From an uncultured Bacilli bacterium (GTDB taxonomy: Bacteria; Bacillota_I; Bacilli_A; RF39; UBA660): a stretch of DNA of 32,854 bases. The stretch's first letter is position 1; each line of letters begins with the position of its first letter. The translations under genes were made by a program, and so were the position numbers. The notes under the pieces are model-generated. The model saw nothing but the letters and a program-made list of their open reading frames with translations, was not told the origin of the DNA and searched no databases. Below are positions 1 to 32,635 of the stretch, piece after piece. The stretch spans positions 1 through 32,854 of the forward strand of contig CANQIY010000002.1 of assembly GCA_947624125.1 (NCBI GenBank). Direction: 5' to 3'.

Positions 1-603
1 GTAGCTTATCTTTCTCATTCAGCATATGGAATAGGAACAGAAATAAGAATAAATAACAATGAAACATACATGACAGGATATTCAGCAGCATCAAATACTG
101 ACCAAAGTAGTATTCCTGGTGAAAGAGGAATAGATGATAAAGTAACAAAACCATACGATACACCAACCGGGTACTTAGCCAGTACAACTGGCAATATAAC
201 AGGTATATATGATATGAGTGGCGGAGCTCATGAATATGTAGCTGGGTATAGTAAAAATATAGAAGAAAAAAGTGGTTTTAGTGAAGACCCTAGTACAAAA
301 TATCCAGGTTATTTTGATAAATATCCGGACGATAGCTCTTGGCGTACTACTAACAAACGTATCTTAGGAGATGCAACAGGGGAAATGGGTCCATTCTATA
401 ATTATTACGAAAAAAACGGGACTTCATATTATCACAATGCTTGGTACGCCGACTATTCGAACTTCGTTGACTCGACGTACCCATGGTTCTATCGTGGGGG
501 CCTTTACGACGATGGAGTTCTCGCAGGTCAGTTCTACTTCGGTAGGAACACGGGAGGTGCGTATTCGAACGTTTCCTCACGTCTTGTTCTCGCCCCACAA
601 TGA
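1..603 (+). CDS. 3' part of a larger gene (open from nt 1, frame 1): FGE-sulfatase/C-type-lectin-fold protein, DGR variable (target) protein
   Basis: Frame 1 has no stop from nt 1 to TGA at 601-603, so the tracked ATG at 70 is internal. GIYDMSGGAHEYVAG resembles the G-x-YDMSGNVWEW signature of FGE/CLec domains. The C-terminal 52 codons are the VR of a VR/TR pair. Confidence 0.8.
   Translation, partial: VAYLSHSAYGIGTEIRINNNETYMTGYSAASNTDQSSIPGERGIDDKVTKPYDTPTGYLASTTGNITGIYDMSGGAHEYVAGYSKNIEEKSGFSEDPSTKYPGYFDKYPDDSSWRTTNKRILGDATGEMGPFYNYYEKNGTSYYHNAWYADYSNFVDSTYPWFYRGGLYDDGVLAGQFYFGRNTGGAYSNVSSRLVLAPQ
448..603 (+). repeat. DGR variable repeat (VR), including a 15-nt 3' IMH-like end (589-603)
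   Basis: Direct repeat of 827-982. Differs from it in the first 141 nt only at 12 positions, and the other copy has A at every one. Confidence 0.85.
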
Positions 604-640
604 CTTTTTTCCCTTCATTCATTTAAGTCATCTTGTTAAA

Positions 641-673
641 GCCATCCCCACCTTCTTTTTTAGTGGGGATGGC
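641..673 (+). other. GC-rich perfect hairpin 38 nt downstream of VR (11-bp stem gccatccccac/gtggggatggc, 11-nt loop)
   Basis: Perfect inverted repeat 641-651 / 663-673. It is followed by an A-run rather than a T-run on the + strand, so it is not a canonical intrinsic terminator for the target gene. Confidence 0.6.
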
Positions 674-789
674 TAAAGAAAAAATAAAAAAAATAAAAAA
701 ATAAAAATTAAATACTGCTTTGGCATTTATAATGGTTATCAGTTTAATATACTGATAATACATGTTTAAATATAAATGTAGGTCATAAG

Positions 790-818
790 TTGTCAAAACT
801 ATCTTTTTTAAATAATAA
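790..818 (+). promoter_or_regulatory. Candidate sigma-70-type promoter immediately upstream of TR
   Basis: TTGTCA (790-795), 17-nt spacer, TAATAA (813-818). The predicted start falls a few nt before TR nt 827. Confidence 0.3.
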
Positions 819-826
819 CTCTTTTT

Positions 827-982
827 GCCGACAATTCGAACTTCGTTGACTCGACGAACCCATGGTTCAATCGTGGGGGCAATTACAACAATGGAGTTCT
901 CGCAGGTCAGTTCAACTTCAATAGGAACACGGGAGGTGCGAATTCGAACATTTCCTCACGTCTTGTTTTAACCCCTCAATAA
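827..982 (+). repeat. DGR template repeat (TR), non-coding, with an IMH*-like 3' end (968-982)
   Basis: Same-strand copy of 448-603. It carries A at all 12 mismatch positions. Nine AAY (Asn) codons correspond to diversified VR codons. It lies outside any supported ORF. Confidence 0.85.
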
Positions 983-1018
983 AAAATAAACAATTACACA
1001 GCTTGTTTATTTTTTTTA
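982..1018 (+). terminator. A/T-rich hairpin flanked by an A-run and a T-run (possibly a bidirectional terminator) directly after TR
   Basis: aaaaataaacaa (982-993) pairs perfectly with ttgtttattttt (1003-1014), followed by more T. The stem is weak and almost all A-U. It overlaps the stop codon of the convergent gene. Confidence 0.4.
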
Positions 1019-1305
1019 GTTTTTTTCATATTAATTTTTTCTAAAGTTTTTAATAAATCTTCGGCATCTTTTAGTTCTGTCTCTTTAATGTAAGAATTTA
1101 GTTTACTAAAAGAGTTATTTTTATAAACAATAGCAATTAACCACCCACTAATAAGAGCTCTTTTAAAACGAAAAATATAACAAATATCTTTATCTTTTGA
1201 AAATTTATTAGTATAAACTATTTTAAAGGGATTATATCCAATACCATTTTTAGTACATAACCATTCTCTTAATAATTCTTGAGCTTTTAAAACATCATTA
1301 TTCAT
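994..1305 (-). CDS. Hypothetical 103-aa protein, convergent with TR
   Basis: Strong RBS (AGAGGTG, 5 nt before the ATG). No motif recognised. Not Avd-like and not an RT. Confidence 0.6.
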   Translation of the reverse strand: MNNDVLKAQELLREWLCTKNGIGYNPFKIVYTNKFSKDKDICYIFRFKRALISGWLIAIVYKNNSFSKLNSYIKETELKDAEDLLKTLEKINMKKTKKNKQAV

Positions 1306-1490
1306 TTATTCACCTCTTCAAATTTAAACACTATTCTAAAATAATTTTCACATATTATAATCTAAAAGTAAAGATAAAGGAAATGCTTATTGTCAAGTTA
1401 TACTATACTTATTTACACTTAATTAACATACAGTGTCTATTGACTTTGGCTTTTATAAATAGCTATAATTATAATGAAAGGTATTAAAGA

Positions 1491-2798
1491 ATGAAGAAAA
1501 GTATAAAAATAATTTTAGGAGCAATGGTTGGTTTTTTAAGCATTGCCAAAGTAAATGCTTTAACTCCTACTGATGTTTTTGATGAGTTAGCCCCAAATGA
1601 TGTAATGGCAGTTGATATAGTAAAACCTAAAGAAATATCTTCCCATTTAACGGCGTGGCTTAGTTCCAAATTAAAAACCGATATTATTGCATCAGTAGAT
1701 AACTGTAATAATGATGAAACAAATTGTGATGTTACAATTAGTATTAATGATGAAAATGAGCTTAATACTTTAACAAAAAATATTAATTTTAAGTGGCATG
1801 AAAAAGAAGATGCAATTTTAAAAATTGTTGAAGATAATAAACATAACTTAGAAGAAAAAGAAATAGTTATAACTGATTTAGCTTATTTAAGTTATTTAAA
1901 TAGTGAAAATAAGAAAATAACCGATTTTTTAGATTTAAAAGATGTTTATAATGACTATAATATAAGTGACTTTTGGCTCGAAAAAGATAATGCTCTAGCT
2001 AGTGTTTATTTATTTTATAATGGTATATTATATGATTATAAAGAAGATTTAAATATTATTAAGGAAAATATAATATATGTTTCTAGTGATACTTTAGAAG
2101 AAGATATATTAAAAGTTGCTAAAGAAAGAATAGATACTTATTTTGGGAAAGATAAAATAGACATTGCTATTGGAGGTTCAGTTAGCGAGTTAGATATTAG
2201 TAATTTACCTAAAATAGATAAAAGAAAAATGAGTGAAAATTACTATAATGTCACATTAACTAATGGAGATATTGTAAAATTTATAATTGTAAAAGATGAA
2301 ACTAAATATATGGCTTCAGAAAGAGAATTAACTGATAATGGAGTAAGTATAATAACAAATTCTAGTTTAGTTAAAGAAAATGCTACTTTAAAAGTTAATA
2401 AAATAAATAGTAATACAACAGAATATAATAATTTAAAAGAAATATTTAAAAGTGATTTTATAGCTTATGATATAAATATTGATAATAAAATTACTAATAT
2501 AGGAAATGATACCTTTATTGTTAAAATTCCTCTTAATGAAAATTTTACAAATAGAGATTTAGTAGCGTATTATATAAATGAAGATAATACTTTAGAAGAA
2601 CATGAAATAGTAATTGATAAATTAGGTAATGCTATATTTACAACTAATCATTTAAGTAAATATATTATTACAGGTCGAATAGGAGTTATAAACCCTGAAA
2701 TAACTCCCCAAACAGGTGATAATATAGTTCTTTATGTTGGTTTATTTATTGTTTCTATCGGAGCTATTGCCTTTGCTATAAAGAAATTTTGGAAATAA
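1491..2798 (+). CDS. Cell-wall-anchored surface protein (signal peptide plus sortase-type sorting signal)
   Basis: N-terminal MKKSIKIILGAMVGFLSIAKVNA. C-terminal TPQTGD, then a hydrophobic helix and a KKFWK tail, an (S/P)PxTG-like sortase motif. Confidence 0.7.
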   Translation: MKKSIKIILGAMVGFLSIAKVNALTPTDVFDELAPNDVMAVDIVKPKEISSHLTAWLSSKLKTDIIASVDNCNNDETNCDVTISINDENELNTLTKNINFKWHEKEDAILKIVEDNKHNLEEKEIVITDLAYLSYLNSENKKITDFLDLKDVYNDYNISDFWLEKDNALASVYLFYNGILYDYKEDLNIIKENIIYVSSDTLEEDILKVAKERIDTYFGKDKIDIAIGGSVSELDISNLPKIDKRKMSENYYNVTLTNGDIVKFIIVKDETKYMASERELTDNGVSIITNSSLVKENATLKVNKINSNTTEYNNLKEIFKSDFIAYDINIDNKITNIGNDTFIVKIPLNENFTNRDLVAYYINEDNTLEEHEIVIDKLGNAIFTTNHLSKYIITGRIGVINPEITPQTGDNIVLYVGLFIVSIGAIAFAIKKFWK

Positions 2799-2803
2799 GA
2801 AAG

Positions 2804-2829
2804 TTAGTTCAAATAGAACTGATTTTTTT
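2804..2829 (+). terminator. Intrinsic terminator after the surface-protein gene
   Basis: ttagttc-aaata-gaactga stem-loop followed by TTTTTTT. Confidence 0.55.
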
Positions 2830-2854
2830 CATTAATGTGTTATAATAATACTTT

Positions 2855-3358
2855 GTGGGGATGAATAACATGTTTAGTTTTGAAAAATTTATTGCAGGAG
2901 CATTAATTTATTATCCAAAAATAGATGAATTTGATATGGAAATATTGTTCACTGAATTTAAGAAAAAATCTCCTAATATTAAGATAACAAAAGTATTTAA
3001 TTTAAATTTAATAGGTAATTATGTTTATGTAAATAATGGTTATTTAATGTTAAAACCTAATTTAACATTAGATACATATGTTAATAGTATGGAAAAAACA
3101 ATAAGAGAATTATTTAGAGATTTAGCTGGGACTAATATTAATAAGTTTTTTCAAACTTTTCTAAGAGAAGACTTTATTTTACAAAAAATCGCATTATATA
3201 AGTATTTATCTTTAGAAAATGAATTTTTAGAAGAAGAAAAAGAGGCCATTATTGAACTTTTAGAACAGGGTTATTTAAAGAAAGATAAACAAGTTTTAAG
3301 TTTATCACGAAAAGGTTTAATAAAAATAGCAAATAATAAAAAGGAAGTAATATTATGA
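2855..3358 (+). CDS. Hypothetical protein (start ambiguous: GTG 2855, ATG 2861 or ATG 2870)
   Basis: ORF only. Its TGA stop overlaps the next gene's ATG (ATGA at 3355-3358), indicating an operon. Confidence 0.5.
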   Translation: MGMNNMFSFEKFIAGALIYYPKIDEFDMEILFTEFKKKSPNIKITKVFNLNLIGNYVYVNNGYLMLKPNLTLDTYVNSMEKTIRELFRDLAGTNINKFFQTFLREDFILQKIALYKYLSLENEFLEEEKEAIIELLEQGYLKKDKQVLSLSRKGLIKIANNKKEVIL

Positions 3359-5483: not shown

Positions 5484-5699
5484 CTCTTATTTGCTATTAT
5501 ACTATAGATATGATTATAAATATATTGTTTGGTAAAAATTTTGTTATATAATTCACTTCGTCAACAAAGATTATAATTATATTGCAATTGTAAAAACAAA
5601 TTAAAAACTCCATTCATTATACATAAACCATTCACGTTCTAAACGTAAAGCTTCGAATTGAACAGAGTTCTAATATATTATTCTTTATTAAGGAATATA

Positions 5700-6902
5700 T
5701 TACTCTTCACTTAAAAAATCAATAATATTAATAACATGTATTCCTTCTATTTGTTTATTTTTTACATTATCCATAGTTAATATTATTTTTTTATAATTAT
5801 CATTTATTGCTAGAAGTGATTTTTTTTCACGTTCTTCTACTTTTTCATCCATTAGGCTTCTTGTAACTTGAAAGTATATTTTTTCGTTAGGATTTACGGC
5901 AATAAAATCAATTTCTATATCATTATATTGTCCTACATATACTTCGTAGCCGCGTCTCAATAATTCTATATATACAATATTTTCATAACTACTACCTGTA
6001 TCGTAAGATGAAATACCTGCAATGATATTTTTAATGCCATTATCTACAAAGTAATATTTCCCCTGGGTTTTTAGTAGTTGTTTTCCCTTTAATTCATATC
6101 GAGGAACTCTGTATATGAAATAAGCATTTTCTAACATTTTTAAATAAGAGTCAACTGTTTCATTTGTAATTAAACTGCCATTTTGCTTCATAAATTCGGC
6201 AATTTTATAAGGAGTTGTAAGATTACCAATTGTGGATGCCATATATTTGATTAAATTGTCCAAAAAGACAATATCTTTTATGTTATTACGACTAATGACA
6301 TCTTTTTTTAAAACAACTTCTTTTAAATCGTTTAAATAATTAATAATTAAATTTTCGTTATCGTTCATGTTGGCAATCATTGGCATTCCACCATATTTTA
6401 AATATTTATCAAATTTATCGAATTTGTCTTCTGTATCTTTAAAAGGATAGATGCTTATAAATTCTTTAAAAGAGAAAGGATATATTTTTATAGTTAAAAC
6501 TCTTCCTGCAAGAAGGGTAGTCAGTTCGCTTGATAATAAATATGCGTTTGAACCGGTTATGTAGATATCGGTATTAAAATCAACTAAAATAGAATTAACA
6601 GCTTTTTCCCACTTAGAAACATTTTGTACTTCATCAAGTAAAATATAAAATTTATTTTTGTTAACAATTCTATCCTTTATATAATTATATAAATCATTAT
6701 AATCATTAATATTATAAAATTCTGCACTTTCAAAATTCATATAAATTATATTTGTTTTATTAATATTTTGATTTAATAAATAATCTTTGTATTGAAGTAA
6801 TAAGGTACTTTTTCCCGCTCTTCGAACCCCAACTATAACCTTAATTAAATTAAGGTCTTTACTTTCAATTAATTTATTTAAATATTTTTCACGTATTAAC
6901 AT
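5700..6902 (-). CDS. AAA-type ATPase with C-terminal DUF4143-like domain (COG1373-type)
   Basis: Walker A GVRRAGKST and Walker B-like ILLDEVQ, with the typical family length. Start moved to ATG 6902 (GGGTG RBS 6 nt upstream). Minus-strand promoter candidate: TTGACA (6943-6948), 17 nt, TATATT. Confidence 0.7.
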   Translation of the reverse strand: MLIREKYLNKLIESKDLNLIKVIVGVRRAGKSTLLLQYKDYLLNQNINKTNIIYMNFESAEFYNINDYNDLYNYIKDRIVNKNKFYILLDEVQNVSKWEKAVNSILVDFNTDIYITGSNAYLLSSELTTLLAGRVLTIKIYPFSFKEFISIYPFKDTEDKFDKFDKYLKYGGMPMIANMNDNENLIINYLNDLKEVVLKKDVISRNNIKDIVFLDNLIKYMASTIGNLTTPYKIAEFMKQNGSLITNETVDSYLKMLENAYFIYRVPRYELKGKQLLKTQGKYYFVDNGIKNIIAGISSYDTGSSYENIVYIELLRRGYEVYVGQYNDIEIDFIAVNPNEKIYFQVTRSLMDEKVEEREKKSLLAINDNYKKIILTMDNVKNKQIEGIHVINIIDFLSEE

Positions 6903-7180
6903 ATTTAACACCCATATTAAATATATAATATTTTTTTGAATTTGTCAAGTTTTACGGCTGTAACCGTAAAAAAACATTTTTTTTGCTTTTTTACGGTTAT
7001 GAAATTAATTTTTCAGCAATAAAAAAATTTTTGATAATTTCTTTCATTTATCATGGAGCGATTGTGCAAGATGATTTCATTAGCTAAATTAGACCTAACT
7101 TTTTCTACTAAATTAGTAATAATTATTTTATCATATAAATTGCTAAATAATGTTAATATTAGTTACTTTTTTGTTTCAAT

Positions 7181-7247: not shown

Positions 7248-7321
7248 TGGAGGAGCCGGCCGGATTTGAACCGGCGATGAAGGTGTTGCAGACCTGGGCC
7301 TTACCACTTGGCTACGGCTCC
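7248..7321 (-). tRNA. tRNA-Cys: tRNA-Cys (anticodon GCA), CCA encoded
   Basis: Minus-strand 74-nt cloverleaf. Acceptor GGAGCCG/CGGCTCC, T-arm GCCGG-TTCAAAT-CCGGC, anticodon loop CTGCAAC, 3' TCCA. Confidence 0.85.
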
Positions 7322-13928: not shown

Positions 13929-14017
13929 GTGGGTTTTCCACTTATTTTTTCTTGCAAAACTTGACTCCGGGGGGGGTATTATATAATAACAAATATAAAA
14001 TAAAGGGAGAAAAAGTA

Positions 14018-16078
14018 ATGCAAGTTATTAACAAAAAGATAATTGTTATTTTTATATGTTTAAGTATTTTTATATTTGGGTTATTTAAATTGTTTAATAA
14101 AGAAAAAGTTGTGTTAGATAATGTAATATTAGATATAAAAGATACTAATAATTCTTTTGCTATTTATATAGAGAAGTATGATGCAGAAGGTAATGCTTCA
14201 TATGTAGAAAGTGAAGATAGTATATTTCCAATAGAAGATTATGTATATAATAAAGAATTAAGTGGATGTTTAGATAGTAATAGTAATGAAGTAGAAGATG
14301 CATTGAATTATAACTATGTAGATAAAGAATTAAATTTAAGAGTAAATAAACCAGTGACGTGTTATGTATATTATGATTATAAAGGTAATGGTACAGAGAA
14401 AATACCATATAAGATAAGAAGTATCGAAGATTTATTAGATTTAAGTCTAAAAGTTAATTCCGGAACAACTTATGCAAATGAATATTTTGAATTAACAAGA
14501 GATTTAGATTTTAGAGATAGTAATTCTTATAATGATAGTGAAAGAACAGACTATGGAAATTTAAATGGAATAGAAGATAATAATACATTAATGGAAGAAT
14601 TAACAACAGGAACTGGATGGATACCTATTGGCAAATATGTTGGTACACTAAGTTTTCAGGGAATATTTGATGGTAATGATAAAAAAATTAATAATTTATT
14701 TATTGAAGAAAAAACTAGGACTGATTATCATACTGGATTATTTGCTTTAATAAACAATAGTGAAATAAAAAATTTGACTGTAAGTGGTAATATTTATCGT
14801 TTAATTGGTGGAGTAAGTGGAGGGATAGTGAGTTTAGTAACTGGCAATTCAGTTATAGATAATTGCCATAGTGAAGTTAATATAGAAAATGAGGCAACAT
14901 CAAATTCAGCAGGTGGGATAGTAGGTGAACTATTAGCAGGTGGAACACTAACAATAAAAAATAGTAGTAATAAAGGAAATATAAGTGGAAGTAATAATAC
15001 TGGAGGTTTAATAGGTTTAAATTTTAATAATTTAAAAATAGAAAATAGTCATAATGAAGGAACAGTTACTAATTCTTTAGGACTTTATACAGCTGGCTTA
15101 TTAGGAAGAGATTATACTGCGACTAGTACAACAACAATTTTAAATTCATATAATAGTGGAAAAGTAATAATTGATGGCACTGATAGAAGTGCGAATTCAG
15201 GAGGTCTTATAGGGAAATTAAATGGTAATGCACATATAAACAATAGTTATAATAAAGGGGAAATAAATGTTAATATAGATGCAACAGCAGGCCAAGTTTC
15301 TTCAGGTGGATTAATAGGTTATGATGATGGGAAGGTAATAATGACTAATTCCCATAATGAAGGTAATGTAATGGGTGGTAATCGAGTTGGAGGTTTAGTA
15401 GGAATTGGTTGGAATAACAGTGTTACAATTATTGACAAGAGTTATAATACTGGTAATTTAGCTCCATCCGAAAATAGTAATTGGAATGGTAGTGTTCATG
15501 TTGGTGGAATTACTTCATATGTTTGGAATGGAGCGAAAATGTATTTATTTAATTCATATAATTCCGGTAATGTCGAAGCAAATTCGTCATTAAAAAAAGG
15601 TAATGCCGGATTTATTACATCTATAAGTGGCGATACTGAAGATAATCAAAAAGTTATTATTTTAAATAGTTATAATATAGGTGATATACTAAATGGAAAT
15701 ATGGGTTTCGGATTTAGTGGTTTGAGTAAAGGAACATTAAAATTGAATAATATCTACAATATGGGTGATTTTAAAGATGTAACAACAAAGTGTGGAATAG
15801 GTTATTTCACTATTGGTCAACCTTATGATGTAAAAAAAGCTTACTACAAAAATAACATTTCAGGAAGTAATATAGAAAATAATGAAATCGTTGGTAAAGA
15901 ATTAAACTATATGCAAAGTGATGCCTTTGTAACAGAGTTAAATAATAATTTAAGTAGTATAACTATTTCAGATTATATAGATAATGATTTATTAACAGAA
16001 TTTAAAAATACAACAGGATATGATTTAACATTAAGTAAATGGACACTAAAAGATGGACATCCTGTCTTAGTTTTTTAG
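14018..16078 (+). CDS. Large secreted or membrane-anchored protein with repeated GLUG-type motifs
   Basis: Start moved to ATG 14018 (AGGGAG RBS). N-terminal anchor IIVIFICLSIFIFGLF. More than 8 repeats of the pattern N-x-G-x-[IV]-x-G-x(3-6)-GG[LI][IV]G. Confidence 0.7.
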   Translation: MQVINKKIIVIFICLSIFIFGLFKLFNKEKVVLDNVILDIKDTNNSFAIYIEKYDAEGNASYVESEDSIFPIEDYVYNKELSGCLDSNSNEVEDALNYNYVDKELNLRVNKPVTCYVYYDYKGNGTEKIPYKIRSIEDLLDLSLKVNSGTTYANEYFELTRDLDFRDSNSYNDSERTDYGNLNGIEDNNTLMEELTTGTGWIPIGKYVGTLSFQGIFDGNDKKINNLFIEEKTRTDYHTGLFALINNSEIKNLTVSGNIYRLIGGVSGGIVSLVTGNSVIDNCHSEVNIENEATSNSAGGIVGELLAGGTLTIKNSSNKGNISGSNNTGGLIGLNFNNLKIENSHNEGTVTNSLGLYTAGLLGRDYTATSTTTILNSYNSGKVIIDGTDRSANSGGLIGKLNGNAHINNSYNKGEINVNIDATAGQVSSGGLIGYDDGKVIMTNSHNEGNVMGGNRVGGLVGIGWNNSVTIIDKSYNTGNLAPSENSNWNGSVHVGGITSYVWNGAKMYLFNSYNSGNVEANSSLKKGNAGFITSISGDTEDNQKVIILNSYNIGDILNGNMGFGFSGLSKGTLKLNNIYNMGDFKDVTTKCGIGYFTIGQPYDVKKAYYKNNISGSNIENNEIVGKELNYMQSDAFVTELNNNLSSITISDYIDNDLLTEFKNTTGYDLTLSKWTLKDGHPVLVF

Positions 16079-25843: not shown

Positions 25844-28207
25844 ATGCAAAAAAGTGAGATAATGGAAATTATCAATAAGAAAACAGCCGAAGCTAAAAAA
25901 ATTATTAATGAAATTAATGAATTAAAAAAGATGCTTAATAATTATGATAGTCAAAATAGAGCTATGTTTACAAATGAAGAAAAAGTAAATCTTTTTATGG
26001 ATTATTTTAAAGGTAGAGATAATATATATCCTTATCTTTCTATTGATAAAAAAGATACGAGTAAAAAATATTATATACCTAAGTGCGCTAATGAATGGAA
26101 TAAAAATGTTTGCTATAAGACAATGGGCAAAAAATGTAGGGATTGTCCCAATTGGTTAGATAAACCTATTGATAAAGAAGTAATTAGAAATCATTTATTT
26201 AATAATATACCAATTGGTATTTATCCTATGTTAGAAGATGAAACATGTTATTTTCTTGCCTTTGATTTTGATGATAAGAAAAATGAAAATACTATTAAAG
26301 AAGATGTTCTTGCTTTTGCTAGTGTTTGTGATAAATATAATGTGCCAATTGCGATTGAAAGAAGTAGGTCTGGGCATGGAATGCATATATGGATTTTTTT
26401 TGAAAATAATATAAAAGCTTCCATAGCAAGAAAGATGGGAAGTTTATTATTATCAAAAACGATGGAAATCCGTGATACTTTAAAAATAGACTCTTTTGAT
26501 AGAATGTTTCCTAATCAAGATACTTTACCTAAAGGTGGTTATGGTAATTTAATTATGCTTCCTTTTCAAAACGACCCGATGAAATACAATAATACAGTTT
26601 TTTTAGATAGAAATTTTTTAGCCTATAAAGACCAATACGCTTATTTAGCCAAAGTTAAAAAAATGAATTATGATGAAGTAGCAAGTATTATAAGAATATT
26701 ATCTATGAATACAATTGATATTAGTAATGAATATATGGAATTAAAAAAAGAAATAAATAATAAAGAAAAAAATAATTTTGATTTTCCAAATAACATTAAT
26801 GTTATATTAGATAATATGATTTATATAGATAAAGCTAATTTAAGTTCAGCAGTTAAAAATTGTTTTAGAAGACTAGCTACTTTTGCTAATCCGGAATTTT
26901 TTAAGAAACAAAGGATGAGAATGTCTGTTCATAATATTCCGATGATTATAGACTGTAGTAAAGAAGATGATAAGTATTTGATGCTCCCGAGAGGAAAACT
27001 AGAATATCTAAGTGTTTTATGTAATCAAAATAATATAAAAATGAATATTATTGATAAAAGAAATAAAGGCGAAAAAATAAATATAAAATTTAATGGGGAA
27101 TTAAGAGAAGAACAAAAACAAGCCCTAAATGGCATGTTGAAATATGAAAATGGTATTCTTGAGGCACCGACGGGATTTGGCAAAACAGTTATATGTTGTA
27201 AATTAATTGAAGAAAGAAATGTTAATACACTTATTATTACTTTTAATTTATCCCTTTTAAAACAATGGAAAGAAAGATTAAAAGAATTTTTAAATATTTC
27301 TCTAGTTGGACAGATTGGTGATGGAAAGAATACTTTGACAAATAAAATTGATGTGGCTAGTATTAAAGCAATATATAATGAGGGAAAATTTAATGATATG
27401 GTTAAAAACTATGGTATGATAATTATCGATGAGTGTCATCATTCATCTGCTTATACATATGAGGCGGCATTAAATATGGTCAATGCTAAATATGTGTATG
27501 GCGTATCAGCAACCCCAGAAAAAGAAAATGGTCATACTCCCATTATCAAAATGCAGTGTGGTGATATTAGATATAAAGTTGATATGAAGGAATATAATAA
27601 AAAATTAAATTTATCAATGAAAGTTTATAATAGAAGTGTTCATTTGAATTTTGTTAATAAAAATGTAACGGATTATAAGATTAATGAAATATATGATTTA
27701 ATAACCAAAGATGTGATAAGAAATGAAAAAGTTATTAAAGATGTAAAAAGGGAATTTGAAAAGGGGAAAAATATATTAGTTTTAACAGAAAGAATTGAAC
27801 ATTTAGAATATTTATTTACCAAATTATCTAAGATAACGGATAATATAATTATATATCGAGGCGGATTAGGTAAAAAGGTTTTAAAAAAATATGATGAATT
27901 AAATGATAATATAAAGAAAAATAATGAAAATAAAATTATAATTGCTACGAGTTCTTGCATTGGGGAAGGATTTGATGATTCTAGTTTGGAAGTTTTATTT
28001 TTAACGATGCCTATTTCAAGTATAAATAGAATAGTACAGTATACGGGAAGATTACATCGAAAGAATGAAAATAAAAAAGAAATAATTGTTTATGATTATG
28101 TTGATGATAATTTTGCAATGATTAGAAATATGTTTTTAAAAAGAAAGAAGGCATATGAAAAAGTTGGGTATGAAATTGTGGAAAATAATGGGCAAATGTC
28201 ATTATAA
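25844..28207 (+). CDS. Archaeo-eukaryotic primase (PrimPol)-like domain fused to an SF2 DEAD/DEAH-type helicase
   Basis: Cys cluster C-x8-C-x7-C-x2-C (CANEW...CRDC). AEP motifs LAFDFDD, SGHGMHIWIFF and FDRMFPNQD. Helicase motifs APTGFGKT (I), IIIDECHH (II), VSATP (III) and QYTGRLHR (VI). Confidence 0.8.
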   Translation: MQKSEIMEIINKKTAEAKKIINEINELKKMLNNYDSQNRAMFTNEEKVNLFMDYFKGRDNIYPYLSIDKKDTSKKYYIPKCANEWNKNVCYKTMGKKCRDCPNWLDKPIDKEVIRNHLFNNIPIGIYPMLEDETCYFLAFDFDDKKNENTIKEDVLAFASVCDKYNVPIAIERSRSGHGMHIWIFFENNIKASIARKMGSLLLSKTMEIRDTLKIDSFDRMFPNQDTLPKGGYGNLIMLPFQNDPMKYNNTVFLDRNFLAYKDQYAYLAKVKKMNYDEVASIIRILSMNTIDISNEYMELKKEINNKEKNNFDFPNNINVILDNMIYIDKANLSSAVKNCFRRLATFANPEFFKKQRMRMSVHNIPMIIDCSKEDDKYLMLPRGKLEYLSVLCNQNNIKMNIIDKRNKGEKINIKFNGELREEQKQALNGMLKYENGILEAPTGFGKTVICCKLIEERNVNTLIITFNLSLLKQWKERLKEFLNISLVGQIGDGKNTLTNKIDVASIKAIYNEGKFNDMVKNYGMIIIDECHHSSAYTYEAALNMVNAKYVYGVSATPEKENGHTPIIKMQCGDIRYKVDMKEYNKKLNLSMKVYNRSVHLNFVNKNVTDYKINEIYDLITKDVIRNEKVIKDVKREFEKGKNILVLTERIEHLEYLFTKLSKITDNIIIYRGGLGKKVLKKYDELNDNIKKNNENKIIIATSSCIGEGFDDSSLEVLFLTMPISSINRIVQYTGRLHRKNENKKEIIVYDYVDDNFAMIRNMFLKRKKAYEKVGYEIVENNGQMSL

Positions 28208-28394
28208 TTTTTAAATTTGTGTTACGATAAAATGAAACATTATTATGTATAAAAATGAAGAAGAATTAAGTAAAATTATAGATGAAATGCAGTAAACGAA
28301 GTAACTTATGAGTGAAATAAAGAAAATTAGTGAAAAAAATAAAAATCTTAATAAAGAGATATGGTATTTCTGTAAAAGTGTAGGAATATTTACA

Positions 28395-29639
28395 TTAATC
28401 TTCTTTTTCTATTATTTTTTCTAATTCAATTCCAATTTTTTCTATTATACCTACTACAAGAGCGTTACCCATCATAAAATTTCTTTTTTTATCAGTCATT
28501 CCCGTATTTGTCCAATTATCTGGAAATCCATTAATTCTTTCACATTCAATAGGGGTTAATAATCTTATTTTTTTAGTCTTATAGTCTTCAATAATATGAG
28601 TAGTTCTGCTGATTCCACCTTCGCTAGTTAGCATTGTTCTAGCTGGTACTTCTAAATTATCTGGACAAGGCATAGCTCCCTCGGCATAAAAATATTTTTC
28701 ACCATTAGGCTTGGTTCTAAGAATCCTTTTATTACCTTTTAAATATTGAAACTTTTTATATTCCTTATCACTTAAAAAGAATTTTTTATCGACTTCTTCA
28801 TGTTGAATTAATTTTTTTAATGGGTAAATATCATTACATTCTGAAACTACTTTAAAAGTATAAGTTTTTCCATTGCACATGAGACCAGCATTATAAAATT
28901 GTGCCTTAAATTTATTACTAACTTCTACTAAATTTTTAAAAGAATTTTTTGATAAATTGGCAGTTTTAAATTCTAATTCTTCATCTTTAATTGGAAATTG
29001 TTTAACAAATATACCATCATTAAAGATTATATCTTTTGGATTTATTTTGGCAATGGATTTATAATATTTAGTAGATTTATGATAGGCAAAGATAAATACT
29101 CTTCTTCTTTTTTGTGGTAAACCATATTCACCAGCATTAATAACTCTCCATTGAACACCATATCCACAATCCATAAAACTTCTTAAAATAATACCAAAAT
29201 CTCTGCCTCTTTGTTTTGCGGGTGATAATAGCAACCTATCAACATTTTCTAACAAAACGAAGGGTGGCTTCTTTGCTTTTAATACATCATTAATAGCCCA
29301 CCATAAAACGCCTTTTTTGCCTTCAATACCTTTACTATTTGAAAGCGTTTGAGCAACAGAGTAATCTTGACACGGAAAACCTCCCACTAAAAGGGTATGG
29401 TTTGGAATTTTTTCTTTATCAACTTGGAATATATCAACATTACTCACATTTTTTTCTCCAAATCTTTTAACATAACAATCAAAAGCTTCTTGTGTTTTTG
29501 TTGAAGGCTCCCATTGGTTGGCCCATAAAAATTCCCAATTACCTTTTTCTTTAACTTTATTTTTAGTGAGTTCAACTTTATTTAAACCACATCTAAATCC
29601 ACCGACACCAGCAAATAGCTCTACTACGGTTTTCTTCAT
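28395..29639 (-). CDS. DNA (cytosine-5)-methyltransferase
   Basis: Motif I ELFAGVGGF, IV GGFPCQDYS, VI LLENV, VIII QKRRRVF, X GNALVV. RBS AGGAGG. Confidence 0.9.
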   Translation of the reverse strand: MKKTVVELFAGVGGFRCGLNKVELTKNKVKEKGNWEFLWANQWEPSTKTQEAFDCYVKRFGEKNVSNVDIFQVDKEKIPNHTLLVGGFPCQDYSVAQTLSNSKGIEGKKGVLWWAINDVLKAKKPPFVLLENVDRLLLSPAKQRGRDFGIILRSFMDCGYGVQWRVINAGEYGLPQKRRRVFIFAYHKSTKYYKSIAKINPKDIIFNDGIFVKQFPIKDEELEFKTANLSKNSFKNLVEVSNKFKAQFYNAGLMCNGKTYTFKVVSECNDIYPLKKLIQHEEVDKKFFLSDKEYKKFQYLKGNKRILRTKPNGEKYFYAEGAMPCPDNLEVPARTMLTSEGGISRTTHIIEDYKTKKIRLLTPIECERINGFPDNWTNTGMTDKKRNFMMGNALVVGIIEKIGIELEKIIEKED

Positions 29640-30089
29640 GTTTATTCCTCCTATAATTGTTTAAATCTACTATATTGTTTATAATATGATGGAAAAAATT
29701 AATTTCCTACTTATATTTTAAACCAATCTTTAAATTAAAACAAGATCAAAAAAAGAATTTTATAAGAAAGGTTCGATTAGACAATAGGAAGAAATGGAGC
29801 TTACCACTAAATAAATAGGTAGTAGATAACTACTATGTTATATATGGCAATAAGAAAAGATTTAAAAATTATTTCATTTTTATTGACTTTAACCATATTA
29901 TGAATTATATTAAAGGTGATAAACGAAAAACTTTGTTGGTATAAATGAAAATGAAGAGTATTGTGTAATATATGCAAAAGTAATTAAATTATCAGTAGTG
30001 AGTCATTAACTGGTTAGAAATACAAGAACAATATTTTTGGATTTATAATAAAAGAAATATTTAAAGAATTTAGTTAGGAGACAATTATT

Positions 30090-30830
30090 ATGGAAGAATT
30101 AAAATGGTTAACACCAAAATGTTGTGAAGAAAAAAGGAATTATAGGATAAAGCAAGCAAAGCAATTTGATAAAGGAATAGATAAGCCAGTCACAATTAAT
30201 TTATCCTTTGAAAATAATATTAAATATGGATTTCGTAATCCTGGCAAAGATGATGGTAAACCTATTAAAAATAGTAAAAATAAAAGAAGAGATATGACTC
30301 CATTTGTTGAAGCAGAAAATAATCCTATATCGACAGGTGAATTTAAAAATATATGGGGAGTATTATTAACATTACAACAAATTTTGGATAAAAGTATATT
30401 ATTAAAACTATATAGATTAATTTATAAACTTGCATTCATGGTAGATTTTGATTTTAATGAAGAAAATAAATGTTATATGCCAAATAGCACATTTATTAAT
30501 GATATACAATATATACAAGAAGAGATAAATAAAGCTGGTTCTGATATTAATATTAAATCATTTATAATATTACTTGATTTACTTGGATGGAATGAAGATT
30601 ATAAATATCAGTTAACAGATGATGTAGCAGATAGTCCGTGGACAGGAAGACTTAATTGTTTGATTTGTATGATATCAGTACCTATTGAGTTAAATAAGCT
30701 TAATATTAAAAAGGGAGAGAAAATAAATTTTGATAGTTTACTTGAAATGTGTTATGCATTTTGTATGTCTAGAGGAATATTTGTATTAAAGAAAAGTGAA
30801 TTAATTCAAGAATTAGAATTGGAGGAATAA
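30090..30830 (+). CDS. Hypothetical 246-aa protein, divergent from the methyltransferase (possible cognate nuclease or other defence component)
   Basis: TAGGAG RBS. No family recognised. There is only a weak D...(E/D)xK-like string (LLDLLGWNEDYKY). Confidence 0.5.
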   Translation: MEELKWLTPKCCEEKRNYRIKQAKQFDKGIDKPVTINLSFENNIKYGFRNPGKDDGKPIKNSKNKRRDMTPFVEAENNPISTGEFKNIWGVLLTLQQILDKSILLKLYRLIYKLAFMVDFDFNEENKCYMPNSTFINDIQYIQEEINKAGSDINIKSFIILLDLLGWNEDYKYQLTDDVADSPWTGRLNCLICMISVPIELNKLNIKKGEKINFDSLLEMCYAFCMSRGIFVLKKSELIQELELEE

Positions 30831-31194
30831 GTAATATATTTCTCCTTTTTATAAACCATTAAGGGTGTATGAATGAACTAAGATTTATCTAATTTTCATT
30901 TCACAAAATAATTTTAATTTTCATACCTTATATTAGGTGATAAAACTATGAATGAAAGAGTAAGTAAAAAGGTGGTAATTGATGCTGGACACCCGAGTTT
31001 TGATAAACCCGATAAATTAAAACTTGGGTTGTAGCAAAAAAGAATCTATGATTTATGATAAAAATTATAATAAGATACTTGGGTAAGTGTCTATTAATTT
31101 GAAAAAAATTAGGAAAATAATTTTCTTTTGTGGTAATTTATGGTATTATATAAAATTAAGAAATTGTTTTGATATGCATAGATATGGAGGTCAT

Positions 31195-32076
31195 ATGAGT
31201 ATAACCAATAAATTTACTGAATTTTGCAATAACATTAAAATTAGCAAAGAAAATTTAGATTGTATAAGCGATAGATATCATAAAATAACAAGAAGAATAA
31301 ATATAGACTATTGGAATACGGAATCTGATATTAACCATAGTTTATATGTTGGATCATTTGGAAGAGATACGGAGATTTATTGTAGTGATATAGATATGTT
31401 GGTTGAATTACCTTATTTTGTTTATGAAAAATATAATAATTATCAAGGAAATGGACAATCTGCATTATTACAAGATGTTAAAAAGGTGATAGAAAAAACC
31501 TATGTTTATTCTAACTTAAAAGGTGATGGTCAAATAATTAGTTTGCCTTTTAGTGATGGAATAAATTTTGAAATTCTACCTGCTTTTGTAAATACTGATA
31601 ATATTAGTTTTACTTTTCCTAATTCAAATAATGGCGGAAGTTGGAAAAAAACAAATCCGAGGGCTGAAATTAATGCCGTGAATGAATTAAATAAAACTTG
31701 TAATGGTAATTTAAAAAAATTATGCAGAATGGTAAGAGCATGGAAAAAATACAATAATGTTGATATAAGTGGTATTTTGATAGATATATTATGTTATAGA
31801 TTTTTAGAAAATTGGGAATATCGTGCAAATTCTTTAGAATATTTTGATTGGTTAACAAGAGACTTTTTTAAGTATTTATCTGAAATTGATTTGAATCAGT
31901 CTGAATGGTATATAATGGGTAGCAATAGAAAAATAGTTGATAATGGATATTTTCAAGGTAAAGCAAAAAAGGCCTATGAAACATCTTTAGAAGCAATAGA
32001 ATATGAAAATAAAAAGTATGAATGGTCTGCTAATCAAAAATGGAGGGATATATATGGAACGAAATTTCCACAATAG
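31195..32076 (+). CDS. SMODS-type (CD-NTase-like) nucleotidyltransferase
   Basis: Start moved to ATG 31195 (GGAGG RBS). Pol-beta NTase signature GSFGRDTEIYCSDIDMLV, then FEILPAF as the third acidic position. Confidence 0.75.
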   Translation: MSITNKFTEFCNNIKISKENLDCISDRYHKITRRINIDYWNTESDINHSLYVGSFGRDTEIYCSDIDMLVELPYFVYEKYNNYQGNGQSALLQDVKKVIEKTYVYSNLKGDGQIISLPFSDGINFEILPAFVNTDNISFTFPNSNNGGSWKKTNPRAEINAVNELNKTCNGNLKKLCRMVRAWKKYNNVDISGILIDILCYRFLENWEYRANSLEYFDWLTRDFFKYLSEIDLNQSEWYIMGSNRKIVDNGYFQGKAKKAYETSLEAIEYENKKYEWSANQKWRDIYGTKFPQ

Positions 32077-32635
32077 CCAAGGATATAAATTAGAATCGCA
32101 ATTAAGAGAGGCCTTTGGTAAAGTTGTTTATACTCAAACATGTCACAATAAAATGGCTGAAAGATTTGCTAAAAGAGATAATAATATTAAAATTTTTCAA
32201 ATTGTGCTTTCTGCAATGACAACGGGAGGCTTTATTACAACTATAATATGTGATGATACGATTGTTAAAATAATAGGCTCAATAATATCATTTTTATTAT
32301 TAATATTTAATTCTTACACTAAAAATTTTAATTTAATTGAAAAAGCAGAGTCTCATAAAAATGCTGCTAATTTGTTGTGGAAAATTAGAGAAGAGTATAT
32401 ATCAGTATTAACTGATTTTGAAATATTGGATGTAGATAAAATTATTTCAATACGAAATGATTTACAAAACAGAACATACGAAATTTATAATAGTTCTCCA
32501 AGAACAGATAAAAAAAGTTATTTACAAGCTCAAAAAAGTTTAAAAACTGAAGAAGAACAAACTTTTTCTGAAAAAGAAATTGATAATATGCTCCCTAATT
32601 CAATTAGACGAGAAAATAGAAAATATAAGGAATAA
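32054..32635 (+). CDS. SLATT-domain two-transmembrane effector
   Basis: Start moved to ATG 32054 (GGAGGG RBS), overlapping the NTase gene by 23 nt. Helical N-terminus, two TM helices (IFQIVLSAMTTGGFITTIIC; IIGSIISFLLLIF), helical C-terminus. Always-adjacent partner type of SMODS. Confidence 0.65.
   Translation: MERNFHNSQGYKLESQLREAFGKVVYTQTCHNKMAERFAKRDNNIKIFQIVLSAMTTGGFITTIICDDTIVKIIGSIISFLLLIFNSYTKNFNLIEKAESHKNAANLLWKIREEYISVLTDFEILDVDKIISIRNDLQNRTYEIYNSSPRTDKKSYLQAQKSLKTEEEQTFSEKEIDNMLPNSIRRENRKYKE

Follow-up and report, generated by a model that had tools for sequence, protein, structure and literature searches.

Diversity-generating retroelements (DGRs), bacterial systems by which the binding site of a surface protein is rewritten, typically carry a variable repeat (VR) at the C-terminal end of a target gene, whose product adopts a C-type-lectin or Ig fold. 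The DGR reverse transcriptase (RT) displays the motifs [LIV]GxxxSQ and YxDD and is usually encoded adjacent to the template repeat (TR), and a GC-rich inverted repeat occurs downstream of the VR in about a third of DGRs. An accessory gene, avd, may also be present, alone or in company with a MutS-like or HRDC gene. The candidate DGR described here lies at the start of a stretch of 32,854 nucleotides from an uncultured Bacilli bacterium (assembly GCA_947624125.1, contig CANQIY010000002.1, positions 1 to 32,854; the whole stretch is hereafter called the window), and comprises the 3' part of a target gene with its VR, a TR downstream of it, and putative cis-acting elements around both repeats.

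The recipient is marked in the Bordetella phage element by an inverted repeat, GC-rich and downstream of the initiation of mutagenic homing (IMH) site, and avd-TR-brt acts there in trans (PMC5758913). DGRs that contain a MutS-like (MSL) gene also carry avd (Wu et al. 2018, PMC5758913). As about 29% of known DGRs are devoid of any accessory gene, such a gene is not strictly DGR-defining (PMC5758913).

Variable and template repeats

A same-strand repeat linked positions 448-603 (VR) to positions 827-982 (TR), as a preliminary description of this DNA had proposed. The repeat finder delimited the two copies to 448-601 and 827-980 (154 nt, 90% identity, start-to-start spacing of 379 nt), in agreement with a base-by-base comparison. 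A gap of 223 nt (604-826) separated the end of the VR from the start of the TR, and the 5' edge of their homology was sharp, at 448/827. An intact reading frame on the plus strand, open from base 1 and closed by a TGA codon at 601-603, had the VR as its final 52 codons; it represents the 3' portion (200 codons) of the DGR target gene (1-603, cut by the window start).

Differences between the two copies were restricted to template adenines over the first 141 nt (VR core, 448-588, and TR core, 827-967, both on the plus strand). Twelve mismatches were found in this core, at TR positions 833, 857, 869, 881, 882, 887, 890, 914, 920, 921, 941 and 950, all of them adenines. The TR core contained 37 A, 36 T and 34 each of G and C, and all the non-A positions (104/104) were the same in the VR. 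The preliminary description had listed the same mismatches, with about 37 adenines and about 104 identical non-A positions, and had made its case depend on the lack of non-A mismatches inside the core; none was present. The test for adenine bias that it had called for gave P = 2.3e-8 (hypergeometric, 12 of 12 mismatches on A with 37 A of 141).

Twelve AAY codons were present in the TR core, nine of them recoded in the VR (to Y, Y, Y, L, D, D, Y, G and Y) and three unchanged; the tenth recoded codon was an ATT replaced by GTT, in line with the codon changes reported earlier. From TR to VR, adenines were exchanged for T (six), G (five) and C (one). The GC content reached 53% in the VR and 47% in the TR, for 25.7% in the window. 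This comparison shows the last 47 codons of the target ahead of its 15-nt end, i.e., the VR core, as a stretch overwritten from the downstream TR, with changes at template adenines only. A DGR origin of the VR/TR pair can be considered almost certain, being backed not only by the adenine bias but also by complete cassettes in related loci, because the orthologous TRs sit there between a homologous target gene and the MutS-like, bAvd and RT genes.

Complete cassettes in related loci

A relative of the target was encoded by 513 stretches of metagenome contigs, the best 80 of which gave 78 distinct loci. Four related loci were also found in GTDB species genomes, namely rabbit and Hadza human gut metagenome-assembled genomes (MAGs). 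As no relative of the target family was retrieved from IMG/VR, the family appears to be cellular and not phage-borne.

VR/TR pairs in the relatives were found by self-comparison of every locus. In ten loci (L010, L014, L018, L019, L020, L024, L034, L035, L037 and L082), the target gene ended in a VR and the TR was placed about 320-350 nt beyond, with mismatches falling all or mostly (at least 75%) on TR adenines. Their cassettes shared a single order on one strand: target (VR), GC hairpin, TR, MutS-like, bAvd and RT. The first gene past the TR encoded a protein of 136-154 aa with MutS domain I (MutS_I, PF01624; 39-40 bits for a cut-off of 20.6). The second encoded a bAvd protein of 119-120 aa (PF22296; 57-79 bits for a cut-off of 40), the match of which to the NCBIfam DGR Avd model remained below its cut-off. 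The third encoded a DGR-type RT of about 342 aa (PF00078), in which both IGNYTSQ and YMDD were recognised; in L020, L019 and L037, the contig or locus stopped inside the RT gene. In L082 (1650-2383), the RT was split over two frames near residue 132, by a frameshift or an error in this contig of about 4x coverage.

The window TR was 86-89% identical to the TRs of these relatives and can be regarded as orthologous to them, since the differences were spread across all four bases, as expected. One further locus departed from the common order: in L043 (10597-10790), the target end was fused straight to the block normally found 3' of the TR, followed by the MSL, Avd and RT genes, so that VR and TR appear to have collapsed to one copy, through assembly or recombination.

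Targets remote from a cassette were encountered as well. The VRs of L013 (two in number) and L021 matched the TR of L014 with adenine-only differences, and the L066 target was located 9.9 kb from an RT fragment. In L003 (5826-5853), a locus from a GTDB Hadza-gut MAG, the target was associated with a hairpin of the DGR type and its VR reached 53% GC; no TR or RT was found within 5 kb upstream and 10 kb downstream of it.

Target protein

The 200-aa target fragment had 810 homologues, with a top identity of 66%, and the named hosts were uncultured Bacilli or Firmicutes MAGs. Its identity to the 605-aa target encoded by the L010 cassette, which is complete, was 64%. Neither Pfam nor NCBIfam provided a family for the fragment. 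The Pfam FGE-sulfatase family (PF03781) was matched above the gathering threshold neither by the window protein, which gave no hit even at E 0.1, nor by its full-length relatives, and only a few homologues carried a precomputed PF03781 match. By contrast with this family assignment, the C-type-lectin fold that the preliminary description had also claimed was retained, on the basis of profile and structural comparisons.

The best match of the family profile among PDB sequences was TaqVP (5VF4, E 2.9e-4), spanning the GIYDMSGG..EY motif (NITGIYDMSGGA.EY). AlphaFold modelling of the truncated 200-aa fragment was poor (pLDDT 41). The modelling of the C-terminal domain suggested earlier was run on a 302-aa homologue, P0006 (61% identical; 121 sequences), and gave a pLDDT of 82 and a pTM of 0.82. 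A Foldseek search with this model placed TaqVP (5VF4) first (E 3e-5, probability 1.00), followed by Mtd (1YU1, E 0.075), and formylglycine-generating enzymes ranked below both. The modelled homologue displays the C-type-lectin fold of DGR variable proteins, with the VR at the C-terminal end of the target. Full-length relatives begin with a signal or anchor sequence, and this start, together with the fold matches of the homologue, points to a secreted or surface protein with a predicted C-terminal binding site of C-type-lectin fold.

Template-derived variability was concentrated at the expected residues. Among 121 homologues, residue entropy averaged 3.39 bits for the 12 AAY-templated residues versus 1.37 bits for the other 35 VR residues (Mann-Whitney P = 2e-7).

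Ends of the repeats and cis-acting elements

The VR and TR ended in an imperfect repeat. Following 17 identical nt, the last 15 nt differed at five positions, two on TR thymines (968 and 976) and three on TR adenines. The IMH-like VR end (589-603, plus strand, CTCGCCCCACAATGA, stop codon included) read CTC GCC CCA CAA TGA, and the IMH*-like TR end (968-982, plus strand, TTAACCCCTCAATAA) read TTA ACC CCT CAA TAA. Most of these differences were synonymous, the in-frame readings being L A P Q stop for the VR and L T P Q stop for the TR. According to the operational definition given in PMC5758913, an imperfect repeat after the A-to-N region corresponds to the IMH/IMH* arrangement, and such a sequence pattern was found here. 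The ends of VR and TR were identical as far as the stop codon in the relatives. The IMH/IMH* claim of the preliminary description stands for the arrangement itself (5 of 15 nt differing, two at non-A positions). Five differences in 15 nt beside 0 of 104 non-A mismatches in the core place a boundary at the 3' end of the TR and VR. This distribution indicates that copying probably homogenised the core at a time much later than the divergence of the ends, and the 3' ends would fit a limit of the IMH/IMH* type.

A GC-rich inverted repeat was found downstream of the VR at 640-674 (no strand assigned; AGCCATCCCCAC / loop CTTCTTTTTTA / GTGGGGATGGCT), 36 nt past the stop codon. This hairpin was present in all TR-linked targets (11/11, the window included) and in L003, and in none of the 66 other paralogues. 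Across the family it was located 36-58 nt past the stop codon, with a conserved loop (CTYCTTTTTWA), and 7 of its 11 pairs showed compensatory changes, in five different cassettes. No comparable hairpin followed the TR. The window hairpin matches the recipient-marking inverted repeat of the Bordetella phage, as it is GC-rich, downstream of the VR and without equivalent after the TR, which makes it a candidate target-recognition hairpin or cruciform. Being family-specific and covarying, it constitutes a mark of TR-linked targets.

Among the non-coding blocks of the cassettes, the one just 5' of the TR was the most conserved. In the window, this block (719-809, plus strand, TGGCATTTAT ... TATAAATGTAGGTCATAAGTTGTCAAAA) shared about 74% identity with its positional counterpart in L014-type loci, and it was conserved in an alignment of six cassettes. 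It may act as a promoter, or may belong to the TR RNA as its 5' part. No plus-strand TR promoter conserved across cassettes was found, the best consensus match in the block being on the minus strand.

Several further sequence features were observed in the same interval. The minus strand carried a near-consensus promoter at 796-769 (TTGACA-16-TATATT), pointing away from the TR and antisense into the hairpin and VR, and its hexamers were kept in five other cassettes. Pairing is conceivable between TGGCATTTAT (721-730) and ATAAATG (771-777), on either side of a variable insert, and neither of these halves varied in six cassettes. An A-rich run of 40 nt (AGAAAAAATAAAAAAAATAAAAAAATAAAAATTAAA, 677-716), between the hairpin and the pre-TR block, was present in no related cassette.

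On the other side of the TR, an AT-rich hairpin was detected at 985-1011 (no strand assigned; AATAAACAA / TTACACAGC / TTGTTTATT), with an A-run and a T-run on either side. It may represent a two-way terminator for the TR transcript and the minus-strand open reading frame (ORF) that follows. It was read directly from the sequence and is missing from the output of the terminator scan, its stem being too poor in G-C pairs.

Activity of the family and state of the window repeats

Seven of the complete loci (L014, L018, L020, L024, L034, L035 and L037) came from one sister species in seven metagenomes. Their TRs were 96-100% identical, their VRs were all mutually different, and 75-100% of the differences between VR and TR were on TR adenines. 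Judging from this comparison of natural variants, the DGR of the related family is evidently active.

The GC content of the VR distinguished the targets linked to a TR. The last 150 nt of the window target were at 52% GC, within the range of cassette-linked VRs (51-57%), for about 35% in the rest of the window target gene and about 33% (28-39%) in family genes outside the VR. When the equivalent 150 nt were considered in the target genes of L002-L084, a continuum from 57% down to 29% GC was obtained; all TR-linked targets were at 51% or above, and the values of paralogues devoid of a cassette went as low as 29-35%. This continuum is read as decay after DGR maintenance stops. As the VRs of many paralogues are at background GC, the loss of DGR maintenance recurs in the family. 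The GC content of the VR (51-57% versus about 33% in the rest of the gene) may offer a simple sign of continued DGR maintenance of a paralogue, and could serve as a clock of maintenance loss. The window VR/TR pair looks freshly homogenised, and nothing is missing from its hairpin, its pre-TR block or the TR itself.

DNA downstream of the template repeat

The position of the MutS-like, bAvd and RT genes in relatives was occupied in the window by an ORF of 103 aa on the minus strand (994-1305), with no Pfam or NCBIfam match and no counterpart in any related locus. Beyond it, a 435-aa membrane-anchored protein was encoded, then housekeeping genes such as pheS/pheT and relA/spoT. The membrane-anchored ORF was 435 aa long as read here and 424 aa as called gene, owing to another start codon.

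The junction between the TR and this downstream DNA was also found in L001, an independent assembly of about 2x coverage (ENA sample ERZ27249647), whose contig ends inside the TR. Over 1.9 kb, L001 was identical to window positions 888-2877, save an 8-bp indel (at about 1309-1316) and three substitutions. All three substitutions (A890G, A914C and T943G) were inside TR AAY codons. They could reflect a chimeric VR/TR at the contig end, true polymorphism of the TR or VR, or sequencing errors.

Origin of a template without enzyme genes

The locus is best explained as the target-and-template half of a chromosomal DGR of the MutS-like and Avd type, with an RT outside the window that still serves the pair, a reading that we hold at an even chance. 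The TR would be transcribed from the plus strand, and the DGR RT, together with Avd, would copy the TR RNA while misincorporating opposite adenines; the resulting complementary DNA would then take the place of the VR. The imperfect 15-nt end would set the 3' limit of replacement and the hairpin would mark the recipient. The serving RT module would be located either upstream of the cut target gene or elsewhere in the genome. The match at 104/104 non-A positions and a VR at 52-53% GC in a genome of 26% GC imply either an RT elsewhere or a recent loss of the module. The preference for an RT outside the window comes from the freshly homogenised appearance of the pair and from the intact cis elements of the TR and of the region 5' to it. 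Service from a distance is further supported by the targets devoid of a cassette that are common in the family (L013, L021, L066 and L003).

Several observations nevertheless weigh against an RT still serving the pair. RT, Avd and MutS-like proteins were absent among the 29 window ORFs of at least 100 aa, on both strands (Pfam), so that neither accessory homologue of the related cassettes was recovered. When the RT, MutS-like and Avd proteins of relatives were compared with all six translated frames (tblastn), no gene or pseudogene remnant was revealed in the 32.8 kb (best E 0.24-0.32). No RT was found over this length; the window begins inside the target gene, so the DNA upstream of it is unseen. 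The enzyme module was directly 3' of the TR in 10/10 TR-bearing relatives, where the window has unrelated DNA. The block of about 110 nt that is conserved 3' of the TR in relatives had no copy in the window according to a covariance model (best E 0.38, elsewhere); if this missing block is the equivalent of the BPP-1 spacer RNA needed for priming, the window TR could not act as a template. The 3' end of the window TR departs from the VR end, with 4/5 changes towards A/T. In addition, the same-species contigs found were short (2-3 kb, about 2x coverage), came from one ENA study, and none reached the VR.

The strongest rival is that of a recently orphaned DGR remnant, in which everything 3' of the TR was deleted or replaced, the VR is frozen and the TR is an undecayed relic; it is rated somewhat below an even chance. 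The unrelated genes at the canonical position of the enzyme module, the 32.8 kb without enzyme genes and the missing block 3' of the TR are what such a loss would leave behind, and the decay of the VR-equivalent regions of many paralogues to background GC provides a precedent. The 3' end of the window TR, uniquely diverged with most changes (4/5) towards A/T, points the same way. The five differences are, however, bunched within the final 15 nt and not dispersed over the TR, a pattern more in keeping with a retrohoming boundary than with decay. A remnant would also require a very recent loss, given 0/104 non-A mismatches and a VR at 52-53% GC, and a break falling exactly at the TR end that left the TR, the pre-TR block and the hairpin whole; moreover, the region upstream of the window is unseen. 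The remnant was weighted below a served pair because a relic stays free of mismatches only briefly while it is recognisable, whereas an active pair is always clean.

A particular form of remote service, of which we are doubtful, is that the TR is a free-standing template with its own upstream element and terminator-like hairpin and without the 3' block of the family, served by a distant RT, Avd and MutS-like module. If true, one enzyme module would serve several dispersed TR-VR pairs, and the DGR would be distributed and not organised as a cassette.

An assembly artefact, with the TR misjoined to unrelated DNA or with the contig start hiding a normal cassette, is very improbable. VR/TR repeats do break or collapse assemblies, as L001 stops in the TR and L043 is fused, and many homologues are on short contigs. 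VR and TR are nonetheless found with distinct flanks on one contig, and misassembly was rejected as unlikely because the independent assembly L001 reproduces the junction between the TR and the downstream DNA.

Duplication of the gene 3' end followed by drift of the non-coding copy to A/T through mutational bias, without any DGR, was rejected as the least probable of all despite a genome at 25.7% GC and a TR richer in A than the VR, since such drift is strand-symmetric and predicts T as often as A whereas all 12 core changes are towards A, without a single one to T, and half of them (six) are T/A transversions and not GC-to-AT changes, all of them limited to AAY or ATT codons with AAY-templated positions hypervariable family-wide, and since orthologous TRs adjoin DGR RTs.

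With these alternatives considered, a target and template served by an RT outside the window remains the preferred reading. Whichever of the leading readings applies, the window locus represents a snapshot either of cassette decay or of a template and its enzyme having become separated.

Other features of the window

A defence-type gene cluster extended over 25844-32635. It included a fusion of a TOTE-type AEP primase with a helicase (25844-28207), a C5 cytosine methyltransferase on the minus strand (28395-29639), and a SMODS nucleotidyltransferase (31087-32076) overlapping the gene of a SLATT_4 effector with two transmembrane segments (32003-32635). On the minus strand, positions 5604-5671 matched the DUF3800-VIII RNA of Rfam with 48 bits, which exceeds the gathering score; the gene immediately 5' of this match, in the same orientation, encodes an AAA_14/DUF4143 ATPase (5700-6911). 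A tRNA gene was also present on the minus strand (7251-7321; Rfam, 62.5 bits). Directly after pheT, a 708-aa protein with a GLUG motif (13952-16078) was encoded, another probable surface protein.

Comparison with known systems

Remote targets are known from the DGR of Treponema denticola and other DGRs, and the window family likewise has targets without a cassette in cis. In such systems, however, only a VR is found at a distance, the TR being retained next to the RT, whereas in the window the TR is beside the VR, with no RT in 32 kb. The unusual point is that the TR is kept intact beside the VR without enzyme genes, and detection pipelines that search for the RT first would miss loci of this kind.

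The relatives of the window locus share with the MSL DGRs of 'Architecture D' (Wu et al. 2018, PMC5758913), including the Legionella pneumophila DGR, a MutS domain I protein, Avd and RT encoded on one strand. They differ in their host, an uncultured low-GC gut Bacilli lineage, and in their order, target-TR-MSL-Avd-RT, and the window copy is without the three protein genes. TaqVP of Thermus aquaticus (5VF4) was the best profile and structural match of the target, the aligned region including the equivalent of GIYDMSGGAHEYVAG. It is nevertheless distant, with an identity of 14-15%, a TM-score of about 0.4, another organism and unrelated N-terminal domains.

Compared with the BPP-1 DGR, the window element is chromosomal and has no relative in IMG/VR. 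Its hairpin is 36 nt past the stop codon with an 11-nt T-rich loop, and the 14-bp all-GC IMH segment is missing. The relatives carry an extra MutS-like gene, and neither avd nor an RT follows the window TR. The likeness to BPP-1 extends nonetheless to a VR at the C-terminal end of a receptor-binding protein of C-type-lectin fold, a TR of about 90% identity whose differences concern adenines only and centre on AAY codons, a 3' end formed by an imperfect repeat, and a GC-rich inverted repeat after the VR and not after the TR. The element is of a known kind, one more target and template pair in a large family of C-type-lectin surface proteins of gut Bacilli.

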